32,000 nucleotides of DNA, from assembly GCA_030614005.1 (NCBI GenBank), contig JAUWKS010000026.1, forward strand, positions 11,682 through 43,681. The letters are read 5' to 3'. This DNA comes from Candidatus Heimdallarchaeota archaeon. GTDB lineage: Archaea; Asgardarchaeota; Heimdallarchaeia; JABLTI01. The position numbers were made by a program, and so were the translations under genes. Of this stretch, positions 12,370 to 17,280 are shown piece by piece. The notes beneath the pieces are model-generated. The model saw nothing but the letters and a program-made list of their open reading frames with translations, did not search any database and was not told the DNA's origin. Every line of letters begins with the position of its first letter. Position 1 is the first letter of the stretch.

Positions 12370-12879
12370 ATGGTGGTCATAATTATTAAACCGTTGAGTT
12401 TATGTTTAGTTCAAATGGGTAAAAAAGGATTAGAACTTGTTAAAACACATCCCAAAGTTTTACCAGATGAAGTTCTAAGTGAGATTACTTACAAAAGCAT
12501 GCCAATGGGTGCAAAATCTGGCGATTTTTCATCAGCAGGTATTGGTAGTTTTTATTATTCCAGTTATGTTTTCAAACTTCCTCAAGATGAAGGGAGAGAT
12601 AACATAGGAACAATAGTTGCTATTTTTCCTAACATGGATTATGATATAGATGGAATAAGGAAACTCTTCACAGTGATTGTAAAAGAGCTTGAAGGAAAAG
12701 CTTTTCTTAGAATGGAGATTATGAAAGAAATACTACCAAACCTCTATGATGGTTTTAGTAAAGGTAGAATTAACATTAAAATTAGTTCCTCAACCTCAAT
12801 CTCTATTGATTTTTCTGATGAAAATGAAGAAAAGGTTGTTGATGAGTCAAAGGCTTTTTCAGATGATTTATGGAAATAA
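12370..12879 (+). CDS. Longin/uDENN-like domain protein
   Basis: Beta-alpha-beta-alpha pattern LSLCLVQMGKKGLELVKTHP...EITYKSMPMGAKSGDF...YSSYVF...IVAIF, resembling the N-termini of the 21374-22627 and 26930-27652 proteins; first gene of an operon with an Arf-like GTPase. Confidence 0.6.
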   Translation: MVVIIIKPLSLCLVQMGKKGLELVKTHPKVLPDEVLSEITYKSMPMGAKSGDFSSAGIGSFYYSSYVFKLPQDEGRDNIGTIVAIFPNMDYDIDGIRKLFTVIVKELEGKAFLRMEIMKEILPNLYDGFSKGRINIKISSSTSISIDFSDENEEKVVDESKAFSDDLWK

Positions 12880-12883
12880 CTAG

Positions 12884-13435
12884 GTGGAAAACTACAACAT
12901 GTCATTCTTACTTAATCTTTTTAGAAGCAAGAACAGAGAAGTAGACGTCACAATCTGCGGTTTAGACAATGCAGGGAAAACTACTATTGTCAAGTACCTG
13001 GAAACAGGGGAATTCGTTGAAACACAACCAACAATGGGCATAAATAGAGGCGAATCTATACACTCAGGAAAAATAGAGATAAATGTTTTCGATTTAGGTG
13101 GACAGGAGGATTTCAGGCAGCTTTGGTCAGAAGTAAACGAAAAATCTGATGGTATTGTCTATGTAGTGGATAAGACCGATGTTATGCGTTTTGAAGAATC
13201 ATACAACGTCTTTCATAATGTGCTTAAAAGCCAACTCCATAAGGATATAAAAATACTTGTTCTTTTACACAAAAGTGACGAACCTGAAGGTTTAGAGAGA
13301 AATAGATTCATAAAAGAATTTGGTTTGCTTGAAATGCCCTTTCAATGGGCTTGTTATGAAACATCTGCAAAAACAGGCGAAAACATCTATGAAGCTTTCA
13401 AATGGTTTGTAGAGTCACTAAAGGAGGTCAGCTGA
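12884..13435 (+). CDS. Arf/Arl-family small GTPase
   Basis: G1 GLDNAGKT, G2 PTMG, G3 DLGGQ, G4 variant HKSD, G5 TSAK. Likely start is ATG 12899 (AGGTGG SD), giving an amphipathic N-terminus MSFLLNLFR with no Gly2. Confidence 0.92.
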   Translation: MENYNMSFLLNLFRSKNREVDVTICGLDNAGKTTIVKYLETGEFVETQPTMGINRGESIHSGKIEINVFDLGGQEDFRQLWSEVNEKSDGIVYVVDKTDVMRFEESYNVFHNVLKSQLHKDIKILVLLHKSDEPEGLERNRFIKEFGLLEMPFQWACYETSAKTGENIYEAFKWFVESLKEVS

Positions 13436-13436
13436 C

Positions 13437-14252
13437 TTGGTTTTAGAAACTGTTTCGTTGTTTTATGTTGTTGTTTCTTGGTTACTAACTGGAGTTATTT
13501 TCACCTTAGTTATTGCCCTTCTTACTAATTTCCTGAAAAAGAAAACAACAGGAACGCTTCTGCTTGCTATCATCTATATTATCTTTTTTATCTCTAGACT
13601 CTCCATAACCATGAGTTATCAATTACAACTATTGGGATTAAAAGAAAGTAAAGTTACTTTAATTATTCTTGCAATAGCAACTACAACTGCATTAGCTGCT
13701 GTTACTTTTCTGTATATCTTCTCTTGCAGGCACCTCTTGAAGGATGGCGAAGTACTTAAATTAGTAACGTTTTTCCTTTTAGCAGCGTATTGGGCAGCTC
13801 TTCTTACAATATCTGTATCTGATGTTTTGCTTCCTGTAGATGAACGTTGGGCAATTCGTATTACTGATTTTACACTCGATCTTCAGAACATTTCATTTGT
13901 ATCTGTTTTAATTGTTTTTCAAGTAGTTATTCAGTCAATAATCTTTTTGAGAATTATTATTCGTGCATTCATCATAGCCAAACGAACAGATGAGATAACA
14001 AGAAAAAGAGGATTGCAAATGATTGGATGGGGGTTATTAGTGTACTTTATAGGCGGTTTGATAGGTGGTATCTTTTACGCTTTACAGGTAGAAAGTGGTG
14101 CCTTAGCCTTCACTCTATGGGCATTTAGAAGTTTAATATTATTAACAGCATATATTATGATGTATATTGGATGGCTTCTCCCAGATTGGTTCCGTAAAAG
14201 AGTTAGAAAGAAAACTTGGTTTGAACAAAAGTTAATTGTTGATTCAAGTTAA
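13437..14252 (+). CDS. Stand-alone 7TM membrane protein (receptor-like)
   Basis: Seven hydrophobic segments (approx. aa 6-29, 40-59, 73-97, 107-127, 152-175, 192-216, 223-248); basic loops after TM1, TM3, TM5 and TM7; TTG start with GGAGGT SD, 1 nt after the GTPase stop. Confidence 0.85.
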   Translation: MVLETVSLFYVVVSWLLTGVIFTLVIALLTNFLKKKTTGTLLLAIIYIIFFISRLSITMSYQLQLLGLKESKVTLIILAIATTTALAAVTFLYIFSCRHLLKDGEVLKLVTFFLLAAYWAALLTISVSDVLLPVDERWAIRITDFTLDLQNISFVSVLIVFQVVIQSIIFLRIIIRAFIIAKRTDEITRKRGLQMIGWGLLVYFIGGLIGGIFYALQVESGALAFTLWAFRSLILLTAYIMMYIGWLLPDWFRKRVRKKTWFEQKLIVDSS

Positions 14253-14287
14253 TTTGAGGAGTATTTGCTCCTCCAAATAATTTTTTT
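14252..14287 (+). terminator. Hairpin plus T-tract terminator of the longin-GTPase-7TM operon
   Basis: GAGGAG-TATTTG-CTCCTC stem (extends to TTTG/CAAA with one bulge), followed by a T run at 14281-14287. Confidence 0.55.
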
Positions 14288-14501
14288 AAATGTGCTAATT
14301 TGTGCTCAATCTTTGGTAGCTATTGTAAAACTACTTGACATAGTAGATTTATCAATCTCTTTTTGTGGAATTTCTGTAATCTACTTTCTATCATTTATTT
14401 ATACTTTATTGTTTCTTCTTGGAAGAATTTTTTTTGCCGTTTGTGCAAGAAGGGTCTATAAGACCAAATATCTTTGTAAATAGTATAATAGAAAAATATG
14501 A

Positions 14502-15104
14502 GTGAAACAAAAATTGGTAAATACCCTCAAAAAAGATCAATTAAAAATTCTGATTAATTTAAGAGAGGTATTAAGACAAGAGATACCGCTCGAGATAGAT
14601 TTCCCTACTGATAAGAAAGTGTACTTTGTTGAAAGTGAAGGTTTTATCGTTACATTAACACTAAACGATTTAAATTTAAAATCCCTTCCTGAAGAGCTAG
14701 CTGAACTAAAAGAAATCGTTGTCCTAAATTTAGCAAATAATAATTTTAAGAGAGTACCAGAGGTGATTCAAAAAATAACTAAATTATCAATTTTGGATAT
14801 GGCTTTTAATCAATTGAATGAAATTCCTAAATGGTTAGGAGAACTGGGAAATCTAAGAGAGCTCCGATTAAACAACAATCAGTTATATTCCCTTCCAAGT
14901 TCAATTGGAGGTTTAACCATTCTGAGGCGCCTTTGTCTGCAATCCAATAGTATTCACTCTCTACCTTTTGAAATTTTGGAATTACAACTTTTAGAAGAAA
15001 TTCATCTGGATTTTAGGTCAACTATTAGAAAGTCAATGAAGATGATTCTTAGCAACTTAGAAAGTAATGGTTGTGTAATTAGAAATAATTATAATAGACG
15101 GTAA
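14502..15104 (+). CDS. Leucine-rich repeat protein
   Basis: About 5 LRRs (LxxLxLxxNxLxxLP), e.g. LRELRLNNNQLYSLP, LRRLCLQSNSIHSLP. Confidence 0.9.
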   Translation: MKQKLVNTLKKDQLKILINLREVLRQEIPLEIDFPTDKKVYFVESEGFIVTLTLNDLNLKSLPEELAELKEIVVLNLANNNFKRVPEVIQKITKLSILDMAFNQLNEIPKWLGELGNLRELRLNNNQLYSLPSSIGGLTILRRLCLQSNSIHSLPFEILELQLLEEIHLDFRSTIRKSMKMILSNLESNGCVIRNNYNRR

Positions 15105-15322: not shown

Positions 15323-16312
15323 TTATATCTTGTCTTTCTTTTTGGAGTTCCTTCTCCATTCTTTATAATAGCGTGATTGTTTCAATAAATAGCTCTTAGC
15401 AATAGGCCTGAACAATTTGGCGAAGAAACTTACTGTTCTTGTTTTACTCTTCATTTCAGAAATAATATCTTCAAATGAATAATGTTGATATTGTAATAGC
15501 TCTTGACTTTCATCAGTATCCATGAAAGCACAGTGAAAGTCATTGTTTCCAAAAGCTATTTCTGGTAGTTTTCCTATACCCATTGTTGTTAACATCGCAC
15601 TAATAAATTCCTTATACGTTAATCTGCAACTTTCTCCACCGGCAATGTGCCAAACTTTATTCCAAATCTCAACTTTCTCGAGAGCATTTACAACTGCTAG
15701 TGCTGCATCTTTTAAATGAATGAGCTCCATATTTGTATCAAGAGGAACATCAAACATCATCGGATCCATTTTTAGATTGTCTATATTGGGCATAAAACCA
15801 AAACGAAAGATAGACCATTGTAATGATGATTTCAAAATTATTTCTTCAGCTAAAACCTTTTGTTGGGCATAGATGTCATCTGAATTTGGATTTGGAGGTT
15901 CATCAGGAGATAAAATGCAAGTACCTCTTTTTCTTACATCACCATAGACAGCAACAGATGATGGAAAAATCAATTTTGTATTCTGATCTGATTGTTTAAT
16001 AGCCTCCACAATATTATCTGTTCCACATACATTGACCTCTCGAGAGTAATCTAAAGAAATAGAATTAAATTTAGGAGGAACAATGGCTGCTAAATGTAAA
16101 ACCAAATCCTGATTATGAACTGCCTTGACTACATCATCAAAATTTCGTATGTCCCCAAATAATATTTCAATTTGATTTCGATATTTTTTAGCAACTTGTT
16201 TCGACTTGCGACTGTTTGTTGAAAAGCACGTTATTATATGATCTGACTTAACTAGTAAATCAAGTATATGTGAACCTAAACTACCAAAAGCTCCAGTAAC
16301 CAATATTTTCAT
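15323..16312 (-). CDS. NAD(P)-dependent epimerase/dehydratase (extended SDR), paralog 1
   Basis: TGAFGSLG, HLAA, VNVCGT, SSVAVYG, YAQQK (YxxxK). Confidence 0.9.
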   Translation of the reverse strand: MKILVTGAFGSLGSHILDLLVKSDHIITCFSTNSRKSKQVAKKYRNQIEILFGDIRNFDDVVKAVHNQDLVLHLAAIVPPKFNSISLDYSREVNVCGTDNIVEAIKQSDQNTKLIFPSSVAVYGDVRKRGTCILSPDEPPNPNSDDIYAQQKVLAEEIILKSSLQWSIFRFGFMPNIDNLKMDPMMFDVPLDTNMELIHLKDAALAVVNALEKVEIWNKVWHIAGGESCRLTYKEFISAMLTTMGIGKLPEIAFGNNDFHCAFMDTDESQELLQYQHYSFEDIISEMKSKTRTVSFFAKLFRPIAKSYLLKQSRYYKEWRRNSKKKDKI

Positions 16313-17280
16313 TCTTTGTCCTCTTGTTTTTTAAGATTTTTTTTATAATACGGTGATTGATGTAATATAAATCTATGAATAATAGGTCTAAGTAATTTAG
16401 TAATTGATATTACGAGTTTATTATATTTTCTCATATCAGAAATTATATCATCATAAGAATGGTGCTGATAATTTAGTAACTCATTGCTTTCTTCAGAACT
16501 CAAAAAGGAGCTATGATAAATACTACCACCAAAAGCTTCATCAGGAATTGTCCCAATGCCCATTGCTTTCATTGTTGAATTAACAAAATTGTGATAATTT
16601 AACCTGCAATTTGGTCCTCCAGCAATATGCAATGTTTTATTCCAGATTTTTTCATTGGTTAAACCATTCGCAAATGCTAAACCAACATCAGAAGGATGTA
16701 GTAATTCGATATATGTATCAATTGGCACATCAAACATTTTTGCATCATACATTAACTCCTTTACAGGTGGGATTACTCCGAGAACAAATATCGAATAAGT
16801 GAGATCTGATTGTTTTATTAAATTCATACATTCAACTTTATGTTTTGAGTAATCATCAACTGGGTTTGGTTTTTCATTGGTTCTGATTGGTTGATGCTTA
16901 TCCCTTGTATCTCCGAATATTGCAACTGAAGATGCGAAAATAAGTTTAGGAGGTGTCGCTAGATTTCTTGCTGATTCAATAATATTTTTTGTTCCTGTTA
17001 CATTTACCTCTGTTGCTTCCTTTCTGTTTTTATCATTTATTGGTGGCAAAAAATAAGCCAAGTGTATTATCAAATCTATATCCACAACTGCTTTTGAAAC
17101 ATCCTCTTTTTTACAAATATCTCCCCAAACAATATCAAATTTTTTTCTAAACCGCTTGGAGTTTTTTTTAGTTTTCTTTGTTTTAATATCAAAACATCGT
17201 ACATTAAAACCCCTATTTTCTAGTGACTCCAATATACTGGAACCAATTAAACCGAAGGCACCAGTTATTAATACATTCAT
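16309..17280 (-). CDS. NAD(P)-dependent epimerase/dehydratase (extended SDR), paralog 2
   Basis: TGAFGLIG, VNVTGT, SSVAIFG, YSKHK; ATGA stop/start overlap with paralog 1. Confidence 0.9.
   Translation of the reverse strand: MNVLITGAFGLIGSSILESLENRGFNVRCFDIKTKKTKKNSKRFRKKFDIVWGDICKKEDVSKAVVDIDLIIHLAYFLPPINDKNRKEATEVNVTGTKNIIESARNLATPPKLIFASSVAIFGDTRDKHQPIRTNEKPNPVDDYSKHKVECMNLIKQSDLTYSIFVLGVIPPVKELMYDAKMFDVPIDTYIELLHPSDVGLAFANGLTNEKIWNKTLHIAGGPNCRLNYHNFVNSTMKAMGIGTIPDEAFGGSIYHSSFLSSEESNELLNYQHHSYDDIISDMRKYNKLVISITKLLRPIIHRFILHQSPYYKKNLKKQEDKE

Follow-up and report, generated by a model that had tools for sequence, protein, structure and literature searches.

A conserved Asgard operon encoding a longin protein, an Arf-family GTPase and a receptor-shaped seven-transmembrane protein

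Results

Layout of the Operon

The window analyzed here is a stretch of 32,000 nucleotides from a Candidatus Heimdallarchaeota genome (contig JAUWKS010000026.1). Three co-directional open reading frames (ORFs) lie within it at 12370-12879 (169 aa), 12884-13435, and 13437-14252 (271 aa, TTG start), encoding a longin protein, an Arf-family GTPase, and a seven-transmembrane (7TM) protein. The features of the unit, with the basis of each assignment, are as follows.

12370..12879, + strand: longin gene (NPRL2-type, stand-alone, 169 aa); from predicted fold and homologs
12595..12597, + strand: Arg76 codon, RDN motif in the β4-β5 loop, candidate arginine finger; from conservation
12862..12876, + strand: DDLWK C-terminal tail, candidate docking motif for the 7TM protein; disordered acidic tail, from conservation
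12883..12887, + strand: SD-like GGTGG before the GTPase gene, 11 nt upstream of ATG 12899; read from the sequence
12899..13435, + strand: Arf-family GTPase gene, 178 aa from the conserved MSFL start (longest ORF from GTG 12884)
13103..13105, + strand: switch II glutamine codon (Gln69, DLGGQ); read from sequence and alignment
13421..13428, + strand: SD AAGGAGGT of the 7TM gene, within the end of the GTPase gene, 8 nt upstream of TTG 13437; read from the sequence
13437..14252, + strand: 7TM gene (orphan, stand-alone, 271 aa, predicted N-out/C-in); from model and family alignment
14253..14287, + strand: hairpin and T7 tract, terminator-like, ending the unit; from RNA fold and sequence

The original prediction had the genes nearly abutting, with gaps of 4 and 1 nt. 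The 1-nt gap between the GTPase stop and the 7TM start is borne out, but the longin-GTPase gap is more likely 19 nt than 4 nt, judged from the alignment, because the conserved GTPase N terminus, MSFLxxLF in 25 homologs, begins in the window at the ATG at 12899. The predicted SD motifs before the second and third genes are both present, as is the predicted hairpin closing the unit, which lies 3′ of the 7TM stop with a GAGGAG/CTCCTC core (−12.5 kcal/mol, z −3.05) and is directly followed by seven T at 14281-14287. The LRR gene downstream and the GNAT and M20 genes upstream were ruled out as members of the unit, these neighbors not being conserved at public MAG loci.

Conservation of Gene Order across Asgard Genomes

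In a sample of 300 Asgard genomes, 35 strong 7TM loci were found in 16 genomes from two families. The longin gene is directly upstream of the 7TM gene and on the same strand at every one of these loci, and 27 of them have a GTPase-sized gap (548-608 nt) between the two, occupied by an intact GTPase gene in 25 and by a broken one in 2. At the remaining 8 loci the GTPase gene is absent, and its loss represents at least two independent events. Identical gene order is present at five public MAG loci with unrelated flanks, one genome contributing two copies. Because the longin-7TM order is kept at 35/35 loci, with dN/dS values of 0.06 (longin), 0.06 (GTPase), and 0.19 (7TM) against the orthologous locus in a congener (dS about 0.62), the gene order is beyond chance. 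All three genes are genuine and constitute a single compact unit subject to purifying selection, and conservation of the triad's order across Asgard genomes, proposed as a check of the original prediction, was found also in paralogous copies.

The genome of the window carries three triads, two longin-7TM pairs, and one orphan longin gene, and sampled Asgard genomes encode up to seven copies of the 7TM family. The unit has duplicated and diverged as a block. Pairwise-identity matrices of the three proteins correlate (r 0.81-0.90), and this covariation between paralogs is in part shared descent. That the genes are neighbors by descent only, without shared function, is very improbable. Part of the synteny conservation is inherited, strong copies being limited to two related families; however, the order is kept in paralogs at 20-40% identity with unrelated flanks, intergenic gaps span 1-30 nt and an SD lies within the gene before, and distant longin and 7TM relatives are adjacent again in other families. 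Longin genes beside genes for polytopic membrane proteins and Arf or Ras GTPases are a recurrent theme in other Asgard families. The membrane proteins of about 215 aa beside distant longin relatives have no detectable kinship to the 7TM family (hhalign probability about 1%).

Since the longin gene is present at all 35 loci and the GTPase gene is missing or broken at some, the invariant pair is longin and 7TM, not GTPase and 7TM. This weakens the proposal that the 7TM protein signals through the co-encoded GTPase. The GTPase may be an accessory rather than the output of the unit, because the longin-7TM pair persists at 8 loci without a cis-encoded GTPase. An exhaustive profile search covering all lengths detected no fusion of the 7TM protein to a longin, GTPase, or output domain among 105 representatives of the family, in agreement with the original prediction of a 7TM protein lacking a fused output domain. 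A longin-profile search for longer proteins likewise found no longin fusions, although this is weak evidence. We found no published description of a longin-Arf GTPase-7TM operon.

The Second Gene Encodes an Arf-Family GTPase

The Arf-like identity anticipated for the second gene product was upheld by a match to Pfam Arf (PF00025; 1.6e-40, 138.9 bits with a cut-off of 22.3) and by its closest solved relatives, Arl1 (5e-29) and then Arf1 and Arf6. A match to the Pfam G-alpha family was weak and below cut-off. Across 25 GTPase copies the conserved elements are MSFLxxLF, the P-loop GLDxAGKT, DLGGQ, N/HKxD, and TSAKTG; the window's protein has MSFLLNLF, GLDNAGKT, DLGGQ, HKSD (NKxD in most paralogs), and TSAKTG. 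By its motifs, gene 2 encodes a complete Arf-family GTPase. The conservation of MSFLxxLF in all 25 copies is in keeping with the amphipathic N terminus predicted for it, and the retained Gln69 would suit a GTPase that hydrolyzes GTP with the help of a GAP.

The First Gene Encodes a Longin Whose Closest Structural Match Is NPRL2

The 169-aa protein matched no Pfam family, and its 72 homologs are all from Asgard MAGs. Its structural model (pLDDT 80) has the topology β1-β2-α1-β3-β4-β5-α2-α3 followed by a β6-β7 hairpin (DSSP). The best PDB matches are NPRL2 chains, with a Foldseek E value of 6.8e-7; compared with the longin model (VIA), these chains gave Z scores of 12.7-15.2 (best 15.2) and rmsd values of 2.8-3.7 Å over 143-148 aligned residues. 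The match spans the whole longin, extra hairpin included, model residues 6-154 corresponding to chain residues 5-165. Lower scores were obtained with FLCN and SMCR8 (Z 10-12), DENND1A (10), and generic longins (8-10). Of the longin/uDENN-like assignment made for this protein, the longin fold stands and the uDENN part does not, NPRL2 reaching Z 15 vs. 10 for DENND1A. Searching the PDB with a sequence profile of the longin alignment recovered no longin and no detectable sequence homology.

NPRL2 is the catalytic GAP subunit of GATOR1 and the bearer of its arginine finger. Because the best structural match is a GAP subunit, the exchange-factor (GEF) activity suggested for the longin in the original prediction is not favored, and on the modeled fold the protein is more likely a GAP than a GEF. 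The candidate finger is Arg76, which is conserved in at least 90% of 46 homologs and retained in distant longin relatives of other Asgard families; by linear position it is a putative equivalent of NPRL2 Arg78. Eukaryotic GAP longins are marked by a Gly-Pro motif located at the start of β2 or before it (PMC12290439). Half of that motif is present in the operon longin family: in the 46-homolog alignment an invariant Gly20 has Leu and not Pro after it, and an invariant Pro lies at position 28, after β2.

It is possible, although on the present structural matches unlikely, that the longin is instead an exchange factor or GTPase-binding platform in the style of Mon1-Ccz1, TRAPP, DENN, or Ragulator, recruited by the 7TM protein to switch on the GTPase at a particular place on the membrane. 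GEFs and scaffolds make up the majority of the longin and roadblock proteins that regulate small GTPases, the structural matches include DENND1A/B, Mon1-Ccz1, and TRAPP subunits (Z 8-10), and the incomplete Gly-Pro motif (PMC12290439) points the same way. However, NPRL2 scores clearly higher (Z 13-15, with full-length coverage), the β4-β5 loop carries the conserved Arg, and the GTPase has kept its catalytic Gln. The longin possibly forms a homodimer.

The longin C-terminal tail is disordered in the model, with Trp168 invariant and Asp166 nearly invariant in the 46-homolog alignment. Of 32 longins beside strong 7TM loci, 30 have an acidic C terminus ending in a hydrophobic residue and Trp, as do all five longins upstream of distant 7TM relatives, but none of 11 longin relatives away from the 7TM family, those beside other membrane proteins included, has it at the terminus. 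The link between this tail and 7TM adjacency extends to small longin-like proteins missed by the longin profile. The longin tail covaries with the 7TM family.

The Third Gene Encodes a Stand-Alone 7TM Protein Predicted to Fold Like a Receptor

The AlphaFold model of the 7TM protein (pLDDT 83.5, pTM 0.81) has seven helices, a β hairpin in ECL2, and a short helix 8. The protein matched no Pfam family, and none ties it to any receptor; its own family is small, with 105 representatives among 1.84 billion proteins. Cytoplasmic segments contain 17 Lys and Arg residues vs. 4 in external segments, and the N-out/C-in, positive-inside topology described previously is accordingly also the one predicted here. 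TM7 (residues 221-247) contains no Lys, as had been noted, and so lacks the retinal-binding Lys by which type-1 rhodopsins are recognized. Conserved motifs at the cytoplasmic side are KKKTTGT in ICL1, YxFxxRHxLxD at the end of TM3 and in ICL2, RKRG in ICL3, and GWxxPxW...RxKxW at the end of TM7 and in helix 8. Conservation is 0.525 in the cytoplasmic half vs. 0.354 in the outer half, with 42 vs. 5 well-conserved columns, a difference reached in 0 of 5,000 shuffles.

The best 50 solved neighbors of the model are all GPCRs (Z 14-16), superposing with an rmsd of about 4 Å over about 230 residues, helix 8 included; such fold scores are inflated, helical bundles reaching Z of about 14 without known kinship. 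HisKA_7TM and 7TMR-DISM modules matched with TM scores of 0.62-0.70 and rmsd values of 2.9-3.8 Å over 213-230 residues, predicted models being compared on both sides, and the matched prokaryotic sensor modules carry fused kinases or GGDEF/EAL, STAS, or MEDS domains. The predicted fold resembles that of GPCRs and appears closer to bacterial and archaeal 7TM sensor modules. No Pfam 7tm family matched the protein, and the DRY, CWxP, and NPxxY motifs are absent from the family alignment, where CRH closes TM3 and GWxxPxW comes after TM7; the GPCR resemblance, as modeled, is one of fold only. None of 17 members of the family matched PF16927 or PF07695 at E values up to 1, and a distant 248-aa relative matched 7TMR-DISM at 0.0055, below the cut-off. 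The comparison of HisKA_7TM and GPCR folds that had been suggested for this protein finds that both match by fold and neither by sequence profile; the description as a stand-alone 7TM protein whose predicted fold is receptor-like holds. One of the 17 members, the 7TM protein of the window, matched Yip1 (E 0.003, below cut-off), which we regard as chance.

The 7TM protein might sense nothing and be a passive anchor or cargo-like partner, the unit acting in membrane remodeling or vesicle formation as eukaryotic Arf and Sar do. No ligand-binding domain is recognizable in the 7TM protein, the GTPase has an amphipathic N terminus, and Asgard Arfs bind membranes in a nucleotide-dependent manner and deform them in heterologous cells (PMC11914678). 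We nevertheless consider this reading rather doubtful: sensor modules of signaling proteins are its nearest counterparts among predicted structures, and a family with up to seven copies per genome, variable in its outer half and conserved in its inner half, is typical of receptors.

Coupling of the GPCR kind, in which a ligand-activated 7TM protein would be the direct exchange factor of the Arf-like GTPase with the longin as an accessory, is quite improbable. Besides the GPCR neighbors in the fold search, an invariant Arg at the cytoplasmic end of TM3 and the sub-cut-off G-alpha match of the GTPase speak for it, as does the helix 8/tail motif of the 7TM protein, which is partly degraded at loci that have lost the GTPase gene. 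However, it is the longin gene and not the GTPase gene that always adjoins the 7TM gene, 8 of 35 loci lacking the GTPase gene and 2 having a broken one through at least two losses; the 7TM protein has none of the three classical motifs and no sequence relation to GPCRs; and the prokaryotic sensor modules fit at least as well.

Discussion

A Proposed Membrane-Anchored Small-GTPase Switch

The reading that we prefer, with a probability of about 0.5, is that the unit is a membrane-anchored small-GTPase switch in which the 7TM protein tethers a longin whose activity is more likely that of a GAP than that of a GEF. The 7TM protein would serve as a platform in the membrane, shaped like a receptor, its outer half variable and its cytoplasmic face conserved and strongly basic, and the NPRL2-type longin would be its constant partner, probably held on that face by the flexible acidic tail ending in a hydrophobic residue and Trp. 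Regulation of the Arf-family GTPase by the longin would more likely be that of a GAP, with Arg76 as its arginine finger, than that of a GEF, and the GTP-bound GTPase would bind the membrane by its N-terminal amphipathic helix. The place or time at which the GTPase is switched off or on would then depend on the state of the 7TM protein. Physical contacts within the unit, GAP activity, and ligand sensing are all inferred. When the 7TM protein and the longin were modeled as a complex, the median score was 0.19, compared with a mark of 0.32 (runs of 0.44, 0.19, and 0.19), which weighs neither for nor against a contact.

A more far-reaching version, which we regard as a long shot, is a receptor-coupled switch built on, and possibly related to, the eukaryotic logic of GPCR-like protein, GATOR1, and small GTPase, in which a ligand-sensing 7TM protein holds a GAP by its inserted tail and gates the Arf. 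The acidic hydrophobic-Trp C terminus of the longin would enter a basic cavity of the 7TM protein, as the G-alpha C terminus does in a GPCR, and this contact would gate the nucleotide state and membrane binding of the GTPase.

Comparison with Known Systems

GATOR1 (NPRL2-NPRL3-DEPDC5, acting on RagA/B) is similar to the preferred switch in that the operon longin finds its best structural match in NPRL2 and carries a conserved Arg whose linear position is similar. LYCHOS/GPR155, a membrane protein, has been described as binding GATOR1 and containing a GPCR-like domain (10.1101/2024.11.21.624772; PMC11525196), and on that account eukaryotes would offer a precedent for joint action of a GPCR-like protein, an NPRL2-type GAP, and a small GTPase. 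In contrast to these systems, the single longin of the operon is 169 aa long, lacks the NPRL2 C-terminal domain, and has neither NPRL3 nor DEPDC5 as a partner; its Gly-Pro motif is incomplete and its sequence homology undetectable. The operon GTPase is of the Arf and not the Rag type, and the operon 7TM protein is without a transporter domain.

C9orf72-SMCR8 and FLCN-FNIP also contain longin domains acting as GAPs, the former on Arf1. However, these are longin-DENN fusions in heterodimers, eukaryotic longin GAPs being heterodimers of two longin proteins, whereas the operon encodes one bare longin beside its candidate client and a membrane protein. Heimdall longins with the GP motif and an arginine finger have been described, and the same study asks whether the ArfR or Rag GTPases of Asgards are clients of Asgard GAP-like longins (PMC12290439); it contains no analysis of gene neighborhoods.

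The operon GTPase is of the same kind as the Asgard ArfR/AArf proteins (bioRxiv 10.1101/2024.02.28.582541; PMC11914678), being of the Arf family with an amphipathic N terminus. Asgard Arf GTPases are nucleotide-dependent membrane switches, and their native regulators (GEFs and GAPs) and cellular context are, according to the same report, still to be established (PMC11914678). In a term search, neither paper mentioned operons, gene neighborhoods, or transmembrane partners, and we propose the longin and 7TM partners as additions to the published picture. The operon nominates one longin and one membrane protein for one Arf subfamily, as candidates for native archaeal Arf partners. Several diverged, matched copies per genome provide natural specificity controls, and Arg76, Trp168, and the 7TM cytoplasmic motifs are targets for point mutation; because specific partners, matched copies, and mutation targets are all available, a direct test with recombinant proteins is feasible. 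If the 7TM protein is a sensor, coupling of a receptor to a Ras-superfamily GTPase through a longin regulator would already exist in the archaeal relatives of eukaryotes.

Prokaryotic parallels include operons combining a membrane sensor, a regulator of the roadblock/longin class, and a small GTPase, as in MglA-MglB and the Streptomyces conservon, which comprises the membrane sensor kinase CvnA, the roadblock protein CvnB, CvnC, and the Ras-like GTPase CvnD and has been likened to G-protein-coupled systems. The conservon differs in having a histidine-kinase-like sensor rather than a 7TM protein, a roadblock rather than a longin, an MglA/Ras-like rather than an Arf GTPase, and bacterial hosts. 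Among Asgards, an operon of Roadblock (LAMTOR1-like), Rab-like GTPase, and DENN proteins is known, and NPRL2-like longin domains are abundant and often fused to two-component signaling domains (bioRxiv 10.1101/2020.10.19.343400). That conserved operon similarly joins a small GTPase to longin/roadblock-type regulators, but the GTPase family and the regulator are different ones and it has no membrane protein; a term search of the same preprint found no mention of a transmembrane partner.

HisKA_7TM (PF16927) and 7TMR-DISM modules, the nearest predicted structures to the operon 7TM protein, are fused to kinase, GGDEF/EAL, STAS, or MEDS outputs, unlike the 7TM family, which is always stand-alone. 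The Haloferax ArvABC system (PMC10927574) is another archaeal operon around an Arf/Sar-like GTPase, with two co-conserved partner genes proposed to encode a GEF and a GAP; the two partner proteins, one SepF-like (DUF2073) and the other a zinc-ribbon protein, include no longin and no membrane protein. The operon in the window was ruled out as an ArvABC system, the partner proteins being different. The ArvABC family occurs in 8 of 183 Asgard genomes (PMC10927574).

The Locus and Its Arf-Family GTPase

The locus comprises a longin gene (gene 1), an Arf-family GTPase gene (gene 2), and a gene for a seven-transmembrane (7TM) protein (gene 3), together termed the triad when found in this order, in AT-rich surroundings (~32% G+C). 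Positions in the window are as follows.

12370–12879, + strand: gene 1, longin, ORF of 169 aa
12884–13435, + strand: gene 2, GTPase, longest reading of this ORF
13271–13282: G4 motif HKSD of the GTPase
13437–14252, + strand: gene 3, 7TM protein, 271 aa, TTG start

The layout described in the original prediction, three ORFs, the second and third with Shine–Dalgarno (SD) motifs, closed by a hairpin and T-tract, holds, apart from the length of the first gap. The true GTPase start is most likely the ATG at 12899 because MSFLxxLF opens 25 homologs, and the longin–GTPase gap would therefore be 19 nt; the GTPase and 7TM genes are 1 nt apart. The sequence 5′ of the GTPase start contains an SD-like GGTGG, and a strong SD, AAGGAGGT, is located 8 nt 5′ of the gene 3 TTG, within the 3′ end of the GTPase gene. 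RNA folding detected a hairpin 3′ of gene 3 (−12.5 kcal/mol, z −3.05) with a T7 run next to it. A hydrophobic ORF of 72 aa (14265–14483, + strand) that overlaps this terminator-like hairpin has no Pfam match and is probably not a gene. Further 3′ is a 200-aa leucine-rich repeat (LRR) protein (14502–15104, + strand; Pfam LRR_14 at 6.6e-14), whose gene is not kept beside the triad in other genomes. Tandem paralogous genes at 15323–17280 (− strand) encode proteins of 329 and 323 aa with an N-terminal GAFGxxGS Rossmann-type motif, which by eye look like NAD-dependent epimerase/dehydratase-like proteins.

By its motifs and matches, gene 2 encodes a full Arf-family GTPase (Pfam Arf, 1.6e-40), with Arl1 (5e-29), Arf1, and Arf6 as its best solved relatives. 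The P-loop, switch II DLGGQ, TSAKTG, and the amphipathic N terminus are kept in all 25 intact GTPase copies sampled. The G4 motif reads HKSD in two subclades, the window's and one more (loci L048 and L049), and NKxD in most of the rest; because the Asn of NKxD normally contacts the guanine base, the nucleotide affinity or specificity of the HKSD copies may differ.

The Longin and 7TM Genes Are the Fixed Pair

Five public MAG loci, a single genome contributing two of them, repeat the triad order between flanks that are unrelated. Strong 7TM loci (profile E below 1e-40) number 35 across an evenly drawn set of 300 Asgard genomes; the 16 genomes that carry them fall in two families within a single class and have as many as seven copies each. 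A longin gene lies upstream on the same strand at all 35. The three-gene order is kept at 27 of the 35, where a GTPase gene occupies a longin–7TM gap of 548–608 nt and is intact in 25; the other eight lack a GTPase gene and have a gap of 45–162 nt. The GTPase gene is broken by a stop in the P-loop at L031 (G252:C212) and decayed at L034 (G228:C60), where the P-loop Gly is replaced by Val, the Gln is lost, and a stop is present. In addition, the longin and 7TM genes at L043 (G228:C49) carry one TGA each and the 7TM gene at L047 (G258:C55) two TAA. Either true pseudogenization or faulty assembly may account for these four decaying copies. In trees of the longin and of the 7TM protein, the GTPase-less pairs require at least two origins, and L031 groups as sister to one of the pair clades.

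Matrices of pairwise identity, one for each of the three proteins, correlate at r 0.81–0.90 across 22 triads, which shows that duplication and divergence affect the unit as a whole. In comparison with the orthologous locus in a congener (dS about 0.62), dN/dS was 0.06 for the longin, 0.06 for the GTPase, and 0.19 for the 7TM protein. The window's genome (G000; 3.6 Mb, 90% complete) encodes five 7TM and six longin copies: triads on contigs C26, C74 (the window), and C18, GTPase-less pairs on C10 and C16, and an orphan longin on C21. The same genome encodes two more stand-alone Arf-like GTPases (G000:C9:70311-70925 and G000:C73:19161-19700). They are the next-best matches to the profile of the triad GTPase, at 182 and 147 bits vs. 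285–299 for triad copies, have no longin or 7TM gene among their neighbors, and could serve the two GTPase-less pairs.

The original prediction had the 7TM protein signaling through the co-encoded GTPase in a way functionally analogous to a GPCR. Direct action of this kind on the GTPase is less likely, since the gene that the unit can do without is that of the GTPase, absent at eight of the 35 loci and broken at two.

Gene 1 Is an NPRL2-Like Longin

No Pfam family matched the gene 1 protein, and its 72 detected homologs are all from Asgard MAGs, mostly labeled Heimdallarchaeota, with several per genome. A model built from an alignment of 46 sequences (pLDDT 80, pTM 0.75) has the longin order β1-β2-α1-β3-β4-β5-α2-α3 with an extra β-hairpin and a disordered acidic tail. 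Its matches are to NPRL2 chains of the GAP complex GATOR1 (Foldseek E 6.8e-7, TM 0.66; VIA-align Z 15.2, rmsd 2.8–3.7 Å over 143–148 residues, model 6–154 on chain 5–165), yeast SEA complex chains (VIA-align Z 13.4–13.9), a Lokiarchaeal longin (Z 13.3), FLCN-complex chains (Z 11–12), DENND1A (Z 10), and SNARE, adaptor, and TRAPP longins (Z 8–10). Topology and matches thus bear out the predicted longin fold, whereas the predicted uDENN type gives way to NPRL2 (Z 15.2 vs. 10 for DENND1A). The abundance of NPRL2-like longins in Asgards was noted earlier by Liu et al. (bioRxiv 10.1101/2020.10.19.343400).

Arg76, in an RDN motif of the β4–β5 loop, is shared by ≥90% of family members and also by distant longin relatives of other Asgard families. 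From the longin sheet order, this loop would neighbor the β1–β2 turn with its invariant Gly17/Gly20. A Gly-Pro motif at that turn, beside the arginine finger, is described as specific to GAP longins (PMC12290439); in gene 1 the Gly is retained and the Pro is absent. We tentatively favor a GAP role for the longin over a GEF role because of its likeness to NPRL2, the conservation of Arg76, and the catalytic Gln that the GTPase keeps; the incomplete Gly-Pro motif and the lack of a second longin temper this preference.

The 7TM Protein Is Conserved on Its Cytoplasmic Face

The confident gene 3 model (pLDDT 83.5, pTM 0.81) has seven helices plus a short helix 8, and its second outer loop forms a beta hairpin. 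Lys+Arg number 17 in cytoplasmic vs. four in outer segments, and there is no Lys in TM7. All of its top 50 solved-structure neighbors are GPCRs (Foldseek best E 7.5e-4, TM about 0.5), with VIA Z of 14–16 (rmsd about 4 Å, about 230 residues), values that helical bundles reach without known kinship. The nearest predicted structures are the prokaryotic sensor modules HisKA_7TM and 7TMR-DISM (TM 0.62–0.70, rmsd about 3 Å), the matches being fused to histidine kinase, GGDEF/EAL, STAS, protein kinase, or MEDS outputs. An exhaustive profile search of 1.84 billion proteins gave 105 representatives of the 7TM family, none above 398 aa or with a recognizable extra domain. No Pfam family matched the 7TM family; a Yip1 match of the window's protein was rejected as a one-off.

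Well-conserved columns number 42 in the cytoplasmic half vs. five in the outer half, and mean conservation is 0.525 vs. 0.354 (0 of 5,000 shuffles as extreme). Conserved motifs are KKKTTGT after TM1, YxFxxRHxLxD ending TM3, RKRG before TM6, and GWxxPxW...RxKxW after TM7, and two conserved arginines are inside TM5 and TM7. GTPase-less pairs keep the three loop motifs and show partial decay of the one at helix 8, which hints weakly at a possible link between helix 8 and the GTPase.

A Putative Membrane-Anchored Switch

Of 32 longins adjacent to a strong 7TM gene, 30 end in an acidic stretch followed by Leu/Val/Ile/Met and then Trp as the last or second-last residue. In other Asgard families, five proteins whose genes precede that of a distant 7TM relative also end in SLW/ALW; three of these are small and missed by the longin profile, two of the three giving weak sub-threshold longin Pfam matches. 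The hydrophobic-Trp ending is absent from 11 longin relatives that are orphans or lie beside a pair of ~215-aa membrane proteins, and these have GSF/GMF ends or extensions past the Trp. Together with the basic, conserved cytoplasmic face of the 7TM protein, the way this ending tracks 7TM adjacency, among proteins that are not mutually independent, is the best available hint of docking between the longin tail and the 7TM protein.

The most likely reading of the unit is a membrane-anchored switch. The 7TM protein would mark the location and might also supply the signal, with the longin as its fixed partner. The longin would regulate the Arf GTPase, and the GTPase would cycle on and off the membrane.

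Among the nearest known systems is the actinobacterial conservon. Others are GATOR1–Rag with the GPCR-like LYCHOS (10.1101/2024.11.21.624772; PMC11525196) and an Asgard roadblock, Rab, and DENN operon (Liu et al., bioRxiv 10.1101/2020.10.19.343400). The parts of the unit are of known kinds: Asgard Arf GTPases (bioRxiv 10.1101/2024.02.28.582541; PMC11914678), NPRL2-like Asgard longins (Liu et al.), GAP-like Heimdall longins (PMC12290439), and GPCR-like Asgard 7TM clusters. Searches of these papers by term, and of the literature library, turned up no account of a longin–Arf–7TM operon or of a membrane partner for Asgard Arf proteins.

Related Clusters in Other Asgard Families

Other Asgard families hold clusters that join a longin to a polytopic membrane protein and a small GTPase, and such linkage is therefore recurrent and not confined to one lineage. 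Distant longin relatives there are clustered with a ~300-aa Arf-family GTPase and two polytopic membrane proteins at loci L058–L063 (genomes G230, G215, G003, G263, G287, and G065), which looks like a second longin, Arf, and membrane-protein module, apparently undescribed. Its GTPase carries about 130 aa C-terminal to the Arf domain; the tandem membrane proteins (about 215 aa, 5–7 TM helices) have no Pfam family and no kinship to the 7TM family by hhalign (probability about 1%). Loci L052 (G074), L054 (G054), L055 (G159), L056 (G016), and L057 (G146) encode distant 7TM relatives, about 245 aa long, with profile E of 1e-12 to 1e-22. Some are directly downstream of 147–191-aa proteins ending in SLW, others adjoin Ras-family small GTPases, and L054 and L055 carry tandem 7TM copies.
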